A DNA stretch of 64,000 nucleotides from Thermoanaerobaculia bacterium (lineage in GTDB: Bacteria > Acidobacteriota > Thermoanaerobaculia > UBA5066), in NCBI GenBank assembly GCA_038245905.1, contig JBBRRY010000021.1, forward strand, positions 8,424 to 72,423. Direction: 5' to 3'. A program made the position numbers and the translations under genes. The notes under the pieces are model-generated. The model was not told the DNA's origin. It did no database searches and worked only from the letters and a program-made list of their open reading frames with translations. This document shows positions 43,762-49,768 of this stretch, piece by piece. Within the stretch, counting starts at the first letter, position 1. Each line of letters begins with the position of its first letter.

Positions 43762-45358
43762 ATGGTCTCGTTGCTCGTTGCCGCGGCGCTCGCCGCGGCC
43801 CCATGGCCGAGCGTCGCGCTGACCCGAGTCGCGGGCGGCTTCTCGAGCCCGACACAGATCACGAGCGCGCGCGACGGCTCGGGCCGCCTGTTCGTCGTCG
43901 AGCAGGGCGGCCTCGTGAAGATCGTGAAGGACGGCGACCCGGACGTCGCGAGCTTGTTCGATGAACAGGTCCTCCTGAAGATTCCGCAGCCGTTCGCGAA
44001 CCACAACGGAGGCCAGCTCGCGTTCGGGCCCGACGGGTTCTTATACGTGGGCATGGGCGACGGAGGGAGCGCGGGCGACCCCTCGAACAACGGTCAGAGT
44101 CTCGGAACTCTTCTTGGAAAGATTCTTAGAATAGATGTGCGGGGCTCGGCCTCGCCGTATGGCATCCCGCCGGGCAACCCTTTCGCCGGCTCTTCGTCTT
44201 CGCGCCGCGAGATCTGGGCCTACGGCCTGCGCAATCCGTGGCGGTTCTCGTTCGACCGCAAGACGGGGAACCTCTTCATCGGCGACGTCGGGCAGGGCGC
44301 GTGGGAAGAAGTCGACTTCCAGCCTGCGGCGGCTCCCGGCGGTGCGAACTGCGGCTGGCGCGTCACCGAGGGTGCGCACTGCTACAACCCGGCGACGGGC
44401 TGCAGCTTCGCGGGCATCACGCTTCCCGTGGCCGAGTACGGGCACGGCGGCGGCAACTGCTCGATCACGGGCGGCTTCGTCTATCGCGGGCGCGACTTCG
44501 CGCGCCTCGGGCACGTTGTACCGCCTCGTGGATGCCGACGGACCGCTGTCCGTCCTGACGGTGCCCGTCGTCGTGGACGTCGCGGGTGTGAACGGCGCGC
44601 GCTTCGTCTCGGAGCTCACTCTCGGGAACCGCGGAACGACGGACGCGTCCGTAGACCTGACGTTCACGGCATCCGTGGCGCTCGGCTCGACGGGCAGCGG
44701 CACGTTCACGACGGCGGTACCGGCGGGACGACAGCTCGTCTTTCCGGACGTGATCCAGTGGCTGCGTGACCATGGCCTCCCCGTTCCGCCGGGCAACCAG
44801 GGTGGGACGTTGCGGCTCGCGTACTCCGGGCTGTCGTTCGGCGACGCCGCGTTCGCGTCCGTGCGGACGCTCGCGAAGGGGGGTGCGGCGGAGTTCCACG
44901 CGAGCGCCCGCACCTCCTCCTCCACACCCGTGGGCGGGACGTTCGGCGTCGCGTATCCGGCGATCCGGCCGTCCGCGGCCGCGCTGTCGGAGGCGTGGGT
45001 CTTCGGCCTGAAACAGGACGGTTCGGCGCGCTCCAACCTCGCGCTGACGAACACGGTTCCGCCGCCGTCGGGATCTCCCCCAACTCCGTCGCCCGTCGAG
45101 CTCTCCGTGGAGTTCTTCGACGGCGATACCGGTCTTTCAGCCGGATTTCAAACCGTTTCCGTGGACGCGTTCTATCCCCGATGGATTCAGCTCAATTCCC
45201 CCCTCACCGCCAGGGGCATCCGGACGGGATACGTACGCGTACGGGCTCCGGCGGGCAACGTCGTTCCGTTCATCGTCTACGGCGTGGTCAATGACGGCGC
45301 TTCGCCGGGGCAGGGGACGGGCGACGGGAGCTATCTCGGGATGAGCGGGGTGAAGTAG
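43762..45358 (+). pseudogene. PQQ-dependent sugar dehydrogenase (sGDH family) fused to a C-terminal domain; internally deleted and frameshifted
   Basis: NHNGG, GDGG, GKILRID and YGLRNPWRFSFD in one frame; frame switches near 44505-44512 (DFARL to SGTLYRLVD); the region between VKDG and DPDVA looks shortened. Confidence 0.75.
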
Positions 45359-45400
45359 TCGCGGAACCCCGCGGGGCCCGGAAGCGTAGACTTCCACGAA

Positions 45401-45730
45401 GTGAAGGGCTCTCTCTTACGCGCCGCCGTCTTCGCTCTCCTCGCGCCGCTGGCGCTGGGCGGGGCGTTTGGGCACGTCGACGGGCTCGAGGTTCTCTCGC
45501 AGGGCACGCAGCTCTTTCATCCGGACCACCCCGCGCACGCCCCGTTCGTCCCGCAGCACGAGCACGCGTGCGCGTCCTGCGCCGTCTCGAACGTCATGCC
45601 GCCGGCGTCGGCGCCTGTCTTCCTCATGCCGCCTCTTTCGCACCCGCTCGCGGAATCGCGTACGGATCGCAGTTCGCCCACCCCGGATCTCCCCGAGCTC
45701 TCCGGTCGTTCGCCTCCTTCCGCAGCGTAG
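45401..45730 (+). CDS. DUF2946/CruR-like upstream ORF, putative metal-sensing ribosome-arrest peptide
   Basis: Signal-like N-terminus; His-rich stretch; CASC at 45569-45580; C-terminal GRSPP; TAGACT -10 box 8 nt before the GTG. Confidence 0.8.
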   Translation: MKGSLLRAAVFALLAPLALGGAFGHVDGLEVLSQGTQLFHPDHPAHAPFVPQHEHACASCAVSNVMPPASAPVFLMPPLSHPLAESRTDRSSPTPDLPELSGRSPPSAA

Positions 45731-45791
45731 ACGTCGCCGGGCGGGACGCAGCGCGTCCCGCTTCCCGTCAACGCCTTCGGAGGAGGATTCA

Positions 45792-46886
45792 TTGAAAGAA
45801 GATCGAGAAAGACGCGCGGCCGCGCTTTTCATCCTTGTCGCAGAATTCTGTTTCCTGGCCCTCGCTGCGGCTCCGGCCGCCGCCCAGACGGCCCAGACCG
45901 GGAACGTCTTCAACCCGAACATCTCCGTGATCGGCAATGCGCTCGGCTTCGTCGGCCACAACACCGTAGACAACCAGCCGGGCCTGCAGCTCAAGGAATC
46001 CGAGATCGGCCTTCAGGCGATCGTGGACCCGTACGCCCGCGCGGACTTCTTCGTGAGCTTCGGGAGCGAAAGGGGAGACGTCGGGATCGAGGAAGGGTTC
46101 ATCACCTTCCTGACTCTTCCCGGCGACTTCATCGCGAAGGCCGGCAAGTTCAAGGCAGCCTTCGGCAAGGTGAACACGGAGCACCCGCACGTCCGCCAGT
46201 ACGCGGACACGCCACTCGTCGTGCTGAACCTTCTCGGCAGCGAGGACGGGATCAACGACTCCGGACTCTCGCTTTCGCGCCTCATCCCGATGCCGTCCGA
46301 GATCTTGCTCGAGGCGACCGGGCAGCTCCTGCGCGGCACGTCGGAGAACCTCTTCCTGGCCGACACCCGCAACGACGTCGAGCCGCTCTTCCACCTCAAG
46401 GCCTACAAGGACCTTTCGGAATCCACCAACCTCGAGCTCGGGGGCTCGTGGACGCGTGGGAACGGTGTCGAAGGACCGGGCCTCCACACGGCGCTGGCAG
46501 GGATCGACGTCTCGTTCCGCTGGAAGCCGCTGCAGCAGGGGCTGTACCGGTCGCTCCTCGTGCGCGGCGAATGGATGACCTCCGAGCGCGAGAGGGCCGC
46601 GGGGGCCACGGTCCGCGCGGACGGCTGGTATGCCCTCGCCCAGTACCAGCTCGGGCGCCGCTGGAACGCCGGCTATCGGCACGACGAGTCGGACCACGCG
46701 GACGACGCGACGCTCCGCGACCGCGGCGACTCGGCGATCCTCACGTTCCTGCCGTCGGAGTTCTCGATGGTCCGCACCCAGCTCCGGCAGAACCGCTACG
46801 CCCAGCCCGGTGGCACCGTGAAGGCCACCGAGCTCCTCGTCCAGCTGCAGTTCGTCATCGGCGCCCACGGCGCCCACCCCTTCTGA
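45792..46886 (+). CDS. Outer-membrane beta-barrel of the metal-uptake-associated family
   Basis: AGGAGG RBS with TTG start; signal peptide; FNPNISVI, AIVDPY, FGKVNTEHPH and C-terminal GAHGAHPF. Confidence 0.85.
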   Translation: MKEDRERRAAALFILVAEFCFLALAAAPAAAQTAQTGNVFNPNISVIGNALGFVGHNTVDNQPGLQLKESEIGLQAIVDPYARADFFVSFGSERGDVGIEEGFITFLTLPGDFIAKAGKFKAAFGKVNTEHPHVRQYADTPLVVLNLLGSEDGINDSGLSLSRLIPMPSEILLEATGQLLRGTSENLFLADTRNDVEPLFHLKAYKDLSESTNLELGGSWTRGNGVEGPGLHTALAGIDVSFRWKPLQQGLYRSLLVRGEWMTSERERAAGATVRADGWYALAQYQLGRRWNAGYRHDESDHADDATLRDRGDSAILTFLPSEFSMVRTQLRQNRYAQPGGTVKATELLVQLQFVIGAHGAHPF

Positions 46887-46903
46887 GAAATGCGAGGAAG
46901 AAA

Positions 46904-47848
46904 ATGAAACGCAGAAGAGAAGATTTTCTTAGAAGGATAATTGGGCCGCTGCTCATTCTGGTTGCCTTTCTTCTCTCCGCCTCCGCCGAAGCAAGGAAGC
47001 TGAAAGTCGTCACGACGCTGTCAGACTTCGCATCGCTCGCCGCGACGATCGGCGGGGACCGCGTCGAGGCCGAAGCGCTGGCGAAGGGCTATCAGGACCC
47101 GCACTTCGTCGAGCCGAAGCCGTCCTTCGTCCTCAAGCTCAACAGAGCGGATGTCCTGATCGTCGCCGGCCTCGAGCTCGAGATCGGGTATCTGCCGCCG
47201 CTCCTCGACCAGGCGCGCAACGAGAGGATCCGTTCTACGGGCGCGGGCTACCTCGATGCGTCCGCCGGCTGCGACATCCTCGATAAGCCCGCCGGTCAGG
47301 TCACGCGGGCGATGGGAGACGTCCACCCGTACGGGAACCCGCACTACTGGCTCGACCCGAAGAACGGGCGCGTGATCGCCCGCGCGATCGCCGCGAAGCT
47401 GACGGCGCTCGACCCGCCCGGCGCCGCCGACTACGCGAAGAACCTTGCGGACTTCGAGGCGAAGCTCAAGGCGGCCGAGGCGCGGTGGGCCGCACGCCTC
47501 GCGCCGTTCAAGAACACGAAGATCGTCACGTACCACAGCTCGTGGCCGAACTTCGCAAAGGCGTTTTCGCTGGACGTCGTCGGGTTCCTCGAGCCGAAGC
47601 CGGGCATCCCGCCGTCGCCGCAGCACAAGCTGGAGATCATCAACCTCATGAACGCCGAGAAAGTCCCTCTCATCCTCATGGAGGTGTACTTCGACCGGAA
47701 GGACCCCGACTTCGTGGCGTTGAAAACGGGCGCGACGGTCGTCGTGATTCCGCCTTCCGTCGGGGGCGAGCCCGCCGCGAAGGACTATCTGTCGCTCTTC
47801 GACGTCGACGTCGAAAAGATCGCTGCGGCTCTGGAGAAGAGGAAATGA
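46904..47848 (+). CDS. Metal ABC transporter substrate-binding protein (ZnuA/TroA cluster)
   Basis: QDPHF, GDVHPYGNPHYWLDP, TYHSSW and EPKPGIPP motifs. Confidence 0.92.
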   Translation: MKRRREDFLRRIIGPLLILVAFLLSASAEARKLKVVTTLSDFASLAATIGGDRVEAEALAKGYQDPHFVEPKPSFVLKLNRADVLIVAGLELEIGYLPPLLDQARNERIRSTGAGYLDASAGCDILDKPAGQVTRAMGDVHPYGNPHYWLDPKNGRVIARAIAAKLTALDPPGAADYAKNLADFEAKLKAAEARWAARLAPFKNTKIVTYHSSWPNFAKAFSLDVVGFLEPKPGIPPSPQHKLEIINLMNAEKVPLILMEVYFDRKDPDFVALKTGATVVVIPPSVGGEPAAKDYLSLFDVDVEKIAAALEKRK

Positions 47849-48684
47849 CCGTCTTCGAGATCCTGCTCCCCGCGTTCGTCGCGAGCCTGATCCTGACCGG
47901 GATCCACTCCTATCTCGGGGTCCACGTCGTGGAGCGGGGGGTAATTTTCGTGGACCTCTCGCTCGCACAGATCGCGGCGTTCGGAGGGACGGTGGGCTAT
48001 CTCGCCGGATACGAGATGCACTCGAACGGTTCGTATGCGTTCTCACTCGCCTTCACGCTTCTTGGGGCCGCGATCTTCGCCCTGACGAAATCGCACGGCA
48101 AGACACGCATCCCGCAGGAGGCGATCATCGGGATCGCGTACGCCGTGTCCGCGGCGTGCGCGGTCCTCGTCATGTCGAAGGCGACACGCGAGACCGAGCA
48201 CCTCAAGGAGATGCTCGTCGGAAACATCCTCTCGGTCTCGTGGCCGGACCTCGCGAAGACGGCGGCGCTCTATGCCCTCGTCGGGGTCTTCCACTTCGTC
48301 TTCCGCGAGCGGTTCCTCCTGATCTCCCGCAACGAGGCCGAGGCCGTCCGCCGCGGCTGGAACGTCAAGTTCTGGGACTTTCTTTTCTACGCCTCCTTCG
48401 GCTTCGTCGTGACGAGCTCCGTCGCGATCGCCGGCGTCCTCCTCGTCTTCTCGTTCTTGATCGTGCCGTCCGTCGCCGCGATGCTCTTTTCCGAGCGGCT
48501 CGGGGTCCGCTTGGCGATCGGCTGGACGATGGGCGTCCTCGTGTCTGCAGTCGGGGTCTGGCTGTCGTTCCTCTTCGACCTCCCGACGGGCGCGGCCATC
48601 GTCGCGACGTTCGGGGCGGCCCTTCTGATCCTCGCCGCGGTTCGGCGGTTCGTGCCCGGCCCGTGGAGGACCGTCACGGCCTAG
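47845..48684 (+). CDS. Metal ABC transporter permease (ZnuB-like)
   Basis: GVHVVERGVIFVDLSLAQ, QEAIIG, GVLLVFSFLIVP and DLPTG motifs; ATGA overlap. Confidence 0.9.
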   Translation: MTVFEILLPAFVASLILTGIHSYLGVHVVERGVIFVDLSLAQIAAFGGTVGYLAGYEMHSNGSYAFSLAFTLLGAAIFALTKSHGKTRIPQEAIIGIAYAVSAACAVLVMSKATRETEHLKEMLVGNILSVSWPDLAKTAALYALVGVFHFVFRERFLLISRNEAEAVRRGWNVKFWDFLFYASFGFVVTSSVAIAGVLLVFSFLIVPSVAAMLFSERLGVRLAIGWTMGVLVSAVGVWLSFLFDLPTGAAIVATFGAALLILAAVRRFVPGPWRTVTA

Positions 48685-48694
48685 AATCCGGTGC

Positions 48695-49768
48695 ATGCCG
48701 ACAAGCAGACGCGCGTTTCTCGAGGAAGTCTCGTTCGCCTCCCTCATCGCGGGGTTCCCGCTCTCGGCGCAGGCCTCGCTCCAGAAGTACGCCGAGAAGC
48801 CGCCGGAACCTGTCTTCCCGAAGGCGCTGAAGAAAGGCGACACGATCGCGCTCATCTCGCCGGCCTCGCCAGGTCACGAGCCCGACGGCACCGACCTGGC
48901 GGTCGAGATCGTGACGTCCCTCGGCTACAAACCCAGGGTCATGCCGAACGCGGGGAAGTTCACGCGTTACCTCGCGGGGACGGACGCGGAGCGGGCGGCT
49001 GACCTCAACGCGGCCTTCGCGGATCCTTCGGTGGACGCGGTGTGGTGCCTGCGCGGCGGCTACGGCACGCCGCGCATCCTGCCGCTCCTCGATTACGAGA
49101 CGATCCGGAAGAACCCAAAGGTCTTCATCGGCTATTCGGACATCACGGGGACGCTGAACGCGATCAACCGGTTGACGGGCCTCGTGACGTTTCACGGCCC
49201 GAACGGCGGGGACGTTCAGAGCGACTACACGCTGGACCAGTTCCGGCGCGTCGTCACGAACCCGCAGGCCGCCGGTCGCATCGCGGAGCCGCCGCCTCCG
49301 GGCAAGCCCCCGCGCGAAGGCTGGGTGGACAAGGAGAACCGCCTCTACCGCCTCGCGCCGGGCAAGGCGAAGGGGCGCCTCGTGGGCGGGAACATCTCCG
49401 TGTTCTCGACACTCATCGGAACTCCGTTCGAGCCCGAGCTCAAGGGCCGCATCCTCTTCCTCGAGGAGGTCGGCGAGGACCCGTACCGCATCGATCGCTG
49501 GCTCACTCAATTCCTCCTCACGGGAAAGCTCTCCGGCCTCGCGGGCGTCGCGCTCGGCAAGTTCTCGAAGTGCAACTCGGAGGACTCCTACGGGACGTGG
49601 ACGTGGGAGGAGGTCTGCAAGGACCGGTTCGGAGGCCTCGGAATTCCCGTCCTCGCGCGTCTCGTCTTCGGCCACGTGACGGACAAGGCGACGCTTCCAC
49701 TCGGTGTCATGGCCGAGCTGGACGCCGACGCGGGCACGCTCACGCTGCTGGAGGCCGCGGTCCGGTGA
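48695..49768 (+). CDS. Peptidase S66 LD-carboxypeptidase with a Tat signal
   Basis: SRRAFL signal; RGGYG; GYSDIT (catalytic Ser); GGN; LEEV; FGH. Confidence 0.92.
   Translation: MPTSRRAFLEEVSFASLIAGFPLSAQASLQKYAEKPPEPVFPKALKKGDTIALISPASPGHEPDGTDLAVEIVTSLGYKPRVMPNAGKFTRYLAGTDAERAADLNAAFADPSVDAVWCLRGGYGTPRILPLLDYETIRKNPKVFIGYSDITGTLNAINRLTGLVTFHGPNGGDVQSDYTLDQFRRVVTNPQAAGRIAEPPPPGKPPREGWVDKENRLYRLAPGKAKGRLVGGNISVFSTLIGTPFEPELKGRILFLEEVGEDPYRIDRWLTQFLLTGKLSGLAGVALGKFSKCNSEDSYGTWTWEEVCKDRFGGLGIPVLARLVFGHVTDKATLPLGVMAELDADAGTLTLLEAAVR

Follow-up and report, generated by a model that had tools for sequence, protein, structure and literature searches.

The locus described here lies in a 64,000-nucleotide (nt) stretch of contig JBBRRY010000021.1 from a Thermoanaerobaculia bacterium (phylum Acidobacteriota; assembly GCA_038245905.1), which is referred to below as the window. 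On its forward strand, a short open reading frame (ORF), the leader, precedes three genes encoding an outer-membrane porin, a solute-binding protein and a permease, and the last sense codons of the leader are predicted to pair with the Shine-Dalgarno (SD) sequence of the porin gene. An earlier, sequence-only reading had proposed that the leader is a metal-sensing ribosome-arrest peptide that controls these genes by sequestering and releasing the SD sequence. The features of the locus, all on the + strand, are the following.

45387..45392, + strand: -10-like hexamer TAGACT, 8 nt 5' of the leader GTG, suggesting a leaderless or nearly leaderless transcript

45401..45730, + strand: leader ORF, GTG start, 109 amino acids (aa), no Pfam or NCBIfam match

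45481..45720, + strand: excess of C over G (C>G bubble) across the 3' part of the leader, by base composition a possible Rho loading site

45569..45580, + strand: CASC (CxxC) codons, cysteines invariant according to the sequence and homologue alignments

45707..45718, + strand: RSPP putative arrest motif, CGT TCG CCT CCT, from the sequence and the family pattern

45713..45722, + strand: anti-SD arm of the outer helix P1, formed by the Pro-Pro-Ser codons and pairing with 45778-45786 with one bulged U

45725..45774, + strand: middle helix P2, 45725-45733 with 45766-45774, its 5' arm holding the stop codon

45739..45763, + strand: inner hairpin P3, 9 Watson-Crick and 2 G-U pairs, with compensatory changes within the genus and without a U-tract

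45778..45786, + strand: SD region of the porin gene, CGGAGGAGG, 5 nt before the TTG at 45792

45792..46886, + strand: outer-membrane porin, TTG start, 364 aa, 16 predicted strands and no plug in the predicted structure

46904..47848, + strand: solute-binding protein of the ZnuA family (PF01297), with His at three ZnuA-type positions

47845..48684, + strand: permease of the ZnuB/ABC-3 family (PF00950), followed by a gene for an S66 peptidase

The leader ORF, its CASC at residues 57-60 and the RSPP motif followed by S-A-A-stop all lie where they had first been placed. The encoded peptide comprises a hydrophobic N-terminal helix, four histidines (H25, H43, H46 and H55), C57-x-x-C60, a Pro/Ser-rich linker of 42 aa and R103-S-P-P106. 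By eye, its N-terminus, with a basic start and a hydrophobic stretch, is signal-like, and structure prediction was otherwise uninformative, giving a mostly unstructured model in which helix 2-18 is the sole confident part (predicted local distance difference test score [pLDDT], 59; predicted template modeling score, 0.23). Among 102 close homologues, no variation is seen at H25, H43, C57, C60 or RSPP, and conservation of H46 and H55 is at least 90%; the His cluster pointed out in the sequence-only reading thus holds for H43, H46 and H55 and not for H40 and H53, which are not conserved, and H25, which had been left out of it, belongs to the conserved set.

No SD sequence precedes the leader GTG, and no full sigma-70 promoter was found at the locus, TAGACT having no -35 match. 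A TAnnnT hexamer stands 7-10 nt 5' of the candidate start in 19 of the 20 genus loci that gave a start, and in the source genome (G000) -10-like hexamers are about five-fold enriched, peaking 6-9 nt before candidate starts. Because TAGACT lies 8 nt upstream of the GTG and hexamers recur at such spacing both genus-wide and genome-wide, it is plausible that the leader transcript is leaderless, as had been claimed, or nearly so. The genome-wide hexamer peak also suggests that this Thermoanaerobaculia genome contains many leaderless genes. A riboswitch or other known noncoding RNA was rejected at the locus, since an Rfam scan of 44500-49500 gave nothing near a gathering score.

The three downstream genes have the import-type character first attributed to them, that of a barrel with ZnuA/ZnuB-like partners. 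The porin is modeled as a 16-stranded barrel (pLDDT 91), with Omp32, OprO and OprP as the best Foldseek matches; no NCBIfam match below E 0.26 was found for it, and it has no precomputed Pfam domain. TonB-dependent receptors are 22-stranded barrels with an N-terminal plug, and this identity was rejected for a protein of 364 aa with 16 strands and no plug in its predicted fold. Histidines occur as H131-x-H133 in a long loop past strand 5 and in a C-terminal GAHGAHPF motif, and an alignment of 46 porins shows H131 and H359 without exception and H133 with at least 90% conservation. The second and third genes match PF01297 (E 3e-52) and PF00950 (E 3e-35), both falling under all NCBIfam equivalog cut-offs, and in an alignment three ligand positions of the binding protein are occupied by His, with the Asp position of PsaA replaced. 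No ATP-binding cassette (ABC) ATPase adjoins the trio in the window, and one lies between the binding protein and permease genes in 1 of 20 wide loci (L204); the trio may borrow an unlinked ATPase or work without one. The same arrangement, a trio without a linked ABC ATPase, is seen in a Vibrio homologue and in 19 of the 20 wide loci. The genome carries two other ZnuA/ABC-3 sets, on contigs C24 and C7. In the distant loci L063, L066, L071-L074, L077, L082, L089, L095 and L116 the permease has a C-terminal extension of 150-220 aa that is HEAT-like by eye.

The leader was compared across loci that were best-scoring or hand-chosen rather than randomly sampled. Its named close homologues come from Thermoanaerobaculia, Acidobacteriota. 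The porin is present in 46 of 61 relatives and in 114 of 401 phylum genomes, tallies that each include one unpublished genome (G037) otherwise unused, and 187 unique porin loci were collected, 170 of them with at least 900 nt upstream. The leader pattern, defined as CxxC, 40-48 residues, RxPP with x free and a stop within 10 codons, was found in 117 of these 170; the 53 misses include three frameshifted leaders, several variants and loci where the leader heads a longer operon. In the leaders of L009, L011 and L014, a single-base frameshift in the linker leaves the RSPP end and the RNA structure intact, a consequence of assembly errors or decay.

Over 127 unique leaders, the x of RxPP is A (62), S (42), P (14) or G (9) and no other residue, which is the set of x residues obtained in E. 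coli stalling-peptide selections (Woolstenhulme et al., as cited in PMC7897499). The spacing from CxxC to RxPP, 42 residues here, is 42-44 in 115 of the 127 (range, 41-47), and the stop follows RxPP at a distance of 1-9 codons. An alignment of 78 leaders with a mean identity of 17% keeps only the start, two Cys, the Arg and two Pro invariant. CxxC is found in 120/120 close homologues and RSPP in 119/120, and RAPP occurs in 62 of the 127 orthologous leaders; RSPP is a clade variant within a wider RAPP family, not a separate system. On the basis of these constraints, we are highly confident that the ORF is a real, conserved regulatory arrest leader.

A profile search with the leader returned 3611 representatives at E<=0.001 and a single match within the source genome, where a scan for other CxxC-RxPP-stop frames gave 13 matches, only this locus resembling a real leader. 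A codon-blind metagenome scan yielded at least 120 stretches; among the matches listed, 74 passed the ORF and hydrophobicity filter, and 61 of these had a called next gene, which in 32 cases matched the porin profile at E<1e-3, these matches resting on partial N-terminal sequence and some of them solely on a coiled-coil. Since metagenome leaders often precede porin-profile matches, the leader-porin pairing probably extends beyond the phylum, although the metagenome contigs carry no taxon names. Paralogous CxxC-RxPP leaders stand before probable TonB-type receptors or CzcC-like outer-membrane factors in seven further loci (L103, L194, L197, L098, L038, L135 and L161), and the first Pro is CCT in five of the seven.

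The leader and the porin gene are separated by 61 nt, and folding of the region nests the three helices. The fold of 45700-45800 has a z score of -2.89, with 2 of 200 shuffles equally stable, and the P1 pairs have probabilities of 0.96-1.0 except at an alternating U. The complementarity on which the sequence-only reading was built exists, in that CCTCCTTCCG pairs with CGGAGGAGG over 9 bp, and is broken by a one-base U bulge, so it is not the perfect complement first described. The perfect 9-bp hairpin at 45741-45761 is real and is lengthened by two G-U pairs, and the middle helix P2, which had been missed, was found by folding. An intrinsic terminator at the inner hairpin was rejected, as none was called and a U-tract is missing. 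In an RNAalifold consensus of 14 genus sequences the inner hairpin was recovered; over the whole predicted fold, 5 of 20 pairs showed compensatory changes.

Opening the ribosome binding site (RBS) is predicted to cost 15.1 kcal/mol in the free RNA and 5.6 kcal/mol with a ribosome footprint at the Pro codons (4.9-5.8 kcal/mol depending on the footprint chosen), which gives computational support to the proposal that stalling frees the RBS. In a control of 250 of 277 candidate SD-bearing genes, drawn from a single genome and at a single distance, 1 gene matched this drop and 17% showed a drop of at least 2 kcal/mol. When P105 was recoded to CCG with the second Pro as CCT or CCG, the predicted cost was 10.0-10.5 kcal/mol, and synonymous Pro variants spanned 9.3-15.3 kcal/mol. 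Across 52 non-redundant loci (54 minus two with long spacers), stalling is predicted to make RBS opening cheaper by at least 2 kcal/mol in 37 and to close the site in 2; compared with weighted synonymous codons, masking of the SD sequence by the native codons is better at 35 loci and worse at 13. From these models, it is quite likely that SD masking contributes at this locus. The genus loci L025 and L026 show a relay in which leader tail codons pair with an intergenic arm, freeing a separate CCUCCC to mask the SD sequence; there, stalling would let a rival hairpin capture the CCUCCC, with the same polarity as in the window.

The codons of the motif carry a signature of their own. The CCT prolines are rare, as had been noted: in 1347 long ORFs of the genome, CCT accounts for 3993 of 46127 Pro codons, and it is the first codon in 600 of 2974 Pro-Pro pairs. 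CCT encodes the first Pro of RxPP in 29 of 54 non-redundant loci (porins less than 70% identical; 10 loci with uncertain starts removed beforehand) versus 12 of 77 other Pro-Pro pairs of the same loci (p 7e-6), and in 18 of 33 loci hand-picked one per family. Metagenome leaders gave 30/74 versus 3/35 for linker pairs, among the matches listed. Other leader prolines are CCT in 80 of 711 cases (distant loci), which is no enrichment. Because sequences resembling an anti-SD repress over long distances and are underrepresented within coding regions (PMC12697547), we take the CCT/anti-SD enrichment to be meaningful, and, as judged by codon statistics, the anti-SD sequence in the Pro codons is more than chance.

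The leader can be set beside several characterized arrest peptides. It has no match at E<=1 to PF11162, the Pfam model of DUF2946 (gathering cut-off, 23.7 bits). DUF2946 is the top Pfam family of the leader homologues, with weak matches at E<=1 in 20 of 78 (best, 3.8e-4), and the PF11162 threshold is passed by some distant relatives (1 of the 30 scanned profile hits and, among the matches listed, 2 of the 23 metagenome leaders linked to the porin). The leader is probably a remote relative of DUF2946, lying outside the family by the Pfam test, and by analogy it is one that works like a DUF2946 leader. CruR of Bordetella pertussis (Bp2923, DUF2946/PF11162), a copper-sensing leader acting through Rho and using frequent RAPP codons (PMC9426467), shares with it the place as first gene of an uptake operon, what looks by eye like an export signal, CxxC, a spacer of nearly fixed length, RxPP three residues before the stop, a C>G bubble and the logic predicted here, in which stalling turns the operon on and metal turns it off. 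The differences are that (i) CruR has RAPP and a spacer of 45 residues (its family within 1-2 residues), whereas the present leader has RSPP and a spacer of 42; (ii) the present leader has four conserved His and no Pfam match; (iii) its transcript appears leaderless, in contrast to the 45-nt 5' untranslated region of CruR; (iv) its arrest codons are rare and form the anti-SD sequence, whereas those of CruR are frequent and its output runs through Rho; and (v) the target is a plug-less porin with ZnuA/ZnuB-type genes and not a copper TonB receptor. The leader thus holds the first position of its operon, but the operon consists of the porin, PF01297 and PF00950 genes and not of copper-homeostasis genes.

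CutF of Rhodobacter capsulatus is likewise a DUF2946-like leader, and its stalling melts a structure that shields the next SD sequence (PMC9973294; bioRxiv 10.1101/2025.02.05.636593). Such a shielding structure opened by stalling is predicted here as well (15.1 versus 5.6 kcal/mol). As described in these sources, CutF has CxxxC, an anti-SD sequence in an intergenic stem-loop, a copper-induced stall and a detoxifying oxidase as target, whereas here we find CxxC, import-type genes, an anti-SD sequence formed by the Pro-Pro codons and, by prediction, a metal effect of the reverse sign. The metal effects of CruR and CutF themselves run in opposite directions (PMC9426467, PMC9973294). SecM, ApdA and ApdP resemble the leader in their RxPP/RAGP-type arrest, and SecM stalling unmasks the SD sequence of secA; they differ in preceding protein-export genes and in that no metal site is part of their description in PMC7897499, where also no SD-masking hairpin is predicted for ApcA, ApdA and ApdP.

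These comparisons narrow what is new. An RSPP variant is itself no novelty, random selections having already yielded RSPP as a stalling motif (cited in PMC7897499 and PMC12992588), and SD sequestration cannot be called an undescribed output, since SD masking relieved by a DUF2946 leader is already the CutF model; not found in print were an anti-SD sequence within arrest codons and, for a leader of this family, a ligand that is probably not copper. The accessible part of the supplement of PMC12992588 (2025) holds at least 9 and at least 29 rows of RAPP leaders and 54 RAPP counts for "carbohydrate porin". The leaders listed there have the same anatomy, and one of them closely resembles by eye the leader of L252, which is followed by a gene with a porin-profile match at E 5e-18; judged by eye from this one leader, the listed porins are probably of the same family. 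The words "zinc," "carbohydrate porin," "Shine-Dalgarno" and "stem-loop" are absent from the main text of that paper. In the freely available papers and supplements that the searches covered, neither an anti-SD sequence inside RxPP codons nor a zinc-sensing member was found, and no paper among them contained both "Acidobacteri" and "DUF2946." What the locus adds is the codon-level anti-SD signature, the RSPP clade with its His-rich site and the porin-importer target, which is probably not a copper system.

On balance, we think that translation of this porin-binding protein-permease metal importer is governed by a ribosome-arrest peptide that acts in cis and has CruR and CutF as relatives, and by analogy there is a good likelihood that metal switches the operon off; we infer both the arrest and its polarity because of the analogy with CruR and the import-type operon. 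The mechanism would proceed in four steps: (i) the transcript would be leaderless and begin at the leader, with the transcription start site placed from the sequence; (ii) when metal is scarce, the ribosome would stall, as expected from the family, with the Pro codons of RSPP in its P and A sites and would cover about 45695-45727, an arrest site at the Pro codons having been measured for CruR (PMC12992588); (iii) the stalled ribosome is computed to melt P1, whereby the porin SD sequence would be freed and the operon translated; and (iv) when metal is available, it would bind the His4/Cys2 region of the nascent chain, which the 42 residues between it and the Arg would place just outside the exit tunnel, and metal-driven folding would pull on the chain and release the arrest, so that the ribosome would terminate, P1-P2-P3 would refold and the SD sequence would be masked again. 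The untranslated C-rich RNA may also undergo Rho termination or degradation.

As to the ligand, zinc rather than Ni, Co, Cu or Mn is slightly favored, because the porin has His pairs, the binding protein has three His and a Zur-type box stands at a Vibrio homologue that lacks the leader. This homologue, a trio in Vibrio campbellii (NZ_CP050465.1; L218, 24% identity), has no leader in its ORF list, and its upstream sequence TGTTATGCTATAACA differs in a single base (14/15 matching) from a Vibrio Zur site given in PMC8248653. L218 (5864-5878 and 5929-8785) contains the Zur-box-like palindrome, a second, partial one and the distantly homologous trio; the stretch is unannotated in the plasmid table. 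That the same RNA switch answers to nickel, cobalt or copper instead is, on the ligand question taken by itself, a serious possibility falling somewhat short of even. NikR genes lie near the porin gene in two loci that both lack the leader, L050/L199 (G305:C8, with CbiM) and L198 (G216:C7, with FeoB upstream), His-rich CutF-like leaders precede Ni/Co genes (PMC9973294), CxxC is the copper site of CruR, and the two further ZnuA/ABC-3 sets in the genome also speak for a metal other than zinc. Against these stand the three-His binding protein and the Vibrio Zur-type box, together with the fact that NikR occurs in only 12 of the 78 porin-bearing genomes and not in G000. A Pfam scan of 89 of 154 neighboring ORFs in the 20 wide loci gave no conserved metal-specific neighbor and, at E<=1e-15, no copper gene besides one P-type ATPase of unspecified metal.

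Two loci lacking the leader, L043 and L047, have an AT-rich palindrome upstream of the porin gene, which we take to resemble a Fur-family box; it has no match in G000 at 2 mismatches. Since a repressor or repressor-type boxes occur at some loci without the leader, a few anecdotal cases suggest that a metal-starvation operon is controlled here by either the leader or a repressor.

Several observations weigh against an arrest switch that answers to zinc and works through P1. The features and their conservation come from sequence, and the RNA switch is a computed one. RSPP permits arrest only in part when placed in ApdA and ApdP, and RAPP does not suffice by itself (PMC7897499, PMC12992588). In the RNA, the RNAalifold consensus of the 14 genus sequences lacks P1 and shows in its place a local SD hairpin outside the reach of the stalled ribosome, and covariation in the P1 flanks is weak (p 0.017, 0.26, 0.04 and 0.04, uncorrected; 18 loci). 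P1 pairing is also not universal, at least 3 predicted pairs being present in 22 of 52 non-redundant loci and in 12 of 18 genus loci; the RBS of L002 and L003 is predicted to become slightly less open upon stalling, and at the locus of the window a weak SD hairpin is predicted to persist after stalling. As for the codon signature, kinship among loci inflates all p values, and CCT in metagenome leaders does not follow the predicted pairing (10/24 versus 12/37, among the matches listed). The Zur evidence comes from a single homologue, which is 24% identical; of the 12 NikR-bearing genomes among the 78 searched, 2 have NikR near the porin gene, at distances of 1.2 kb and 5 kb; and no Fur-family gene was found within 10 kb of the porin gene in the 78 genomes.

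Three further explanations of the locus differ from arrest coupled to SD release. An output of the CruR type, in which the stalled ribosome shields a C-rich Rho utilization (rut) site, metal frees the stall and Rho then terminates transcription, with SD masking secondary and CCT selected for the pyrimidines of the rut site, appears unlikely as the sole account. C minus G reaches 0.20 across the last 120 nt of the leader, a value attained by 0.4% of random genome windows, and exceeds 0.1 in 43 of 54 non-redundant loci; a rho gene is present in the genome, the Rho mechanism has been demonstrated for CruR (PMC9426467), and the inner hairpin could serve as a polymerase pause. However, CCT is enriched at the first Pro of RxPP and not across the linker, the predicted P1 is very stable here, and the intergenic distance is 61 nt versus 162 nt for cruR. 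Rho termination and SD masking can act together, and because of the C>G bubble and the rho gene the CruR mechanism may act here too, beside the SD release that we favor.

It is more improbable still that the leader senses export force or thiol state, in the manner of SecM-like monitors, or that metal induces the stall with the polarity of CutF, the operon being on with metal or envelope stress. The conserved signal-like N-terminus fits such a scheme, as does CutF itself, which requires its signal peptide and stalls on copper (PMC9973294; bioRxiv 10.1101/2025.02.05.636593), and paralogous leaders head CzcC-like genes in L135 and probably in L161; but porin, binding protein and permease form an import architecture, repressor-type boxes stand in for the leader at some homologues, and four His and two Cys are conserved. 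Finally, the notion that the ORF encodes a small secreted metal-binding protein, with an RSPP that does not stall appreciably and a pairing that is a by-product of a GC-rich genome, draws on the signal-like start, the His/Cys residues, the weaker effect of RSPP than of RAPP in two tested peptides (PMC7897499, PMC12992588) and the fact that any Pro-Pro pairs somewhat with GGAGG (synonymous variants retaining 9.3-15.3 kcal/mol), but is hardly credible given the fixed CxxC-to-RxPP spacing, the restriction of x to stalling residues, the stop within 1-9 codons, the first place in the operon, the position-specific CCT and the unstructured predicted model.

Upstream of the locus, at 43762-45358 of the window, a glucose/sorbosone dehydrogenase-like ORF (43762-44769) overlaps an unnamed ORF (44135-45358) in a different frame, as if a single gene had been broken near 44530.

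To conclude, the arrest leader, its codon-embedded anti-SD sequence and the importer genes behind it may belong to something broader, although we hold only tentatively that a widespread zinc-sensing arrest switch, in which one codon pair both stalls the ribosome as peptide and masks the SD sequence as RNA, replaces Zur/NikR/Fur-type repression of an uncharacterized porin-binding protein-permease importer without a linked ATPase across Acidobacteriota and other Gram-negative lineages. A common 16-stranded, His-lined porin emerges from the analysis as a candidate metal channel, one that has probably been mislabeled as a TonB receptor or carbohydrate porin. The codon signature amounts to a testable design rule, as synonymous changes should split stalling from SD masking. 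Both characterized leaders of the DUF2946 family, CruR and CutF, sense copper, and according to the CruR paper no zinc riboswitch is known (PMC9426467); if the proposal is true, a zinc-sensing leader would be a post-transcriptional zinc sensor. If the leader answers to Zn, Ni or Co, metal sensing by nascent peptides would stand as a general alternative to metalloregulators, and one in use in a dominant soil phylum, in which such genes carry hypothetical annotation.

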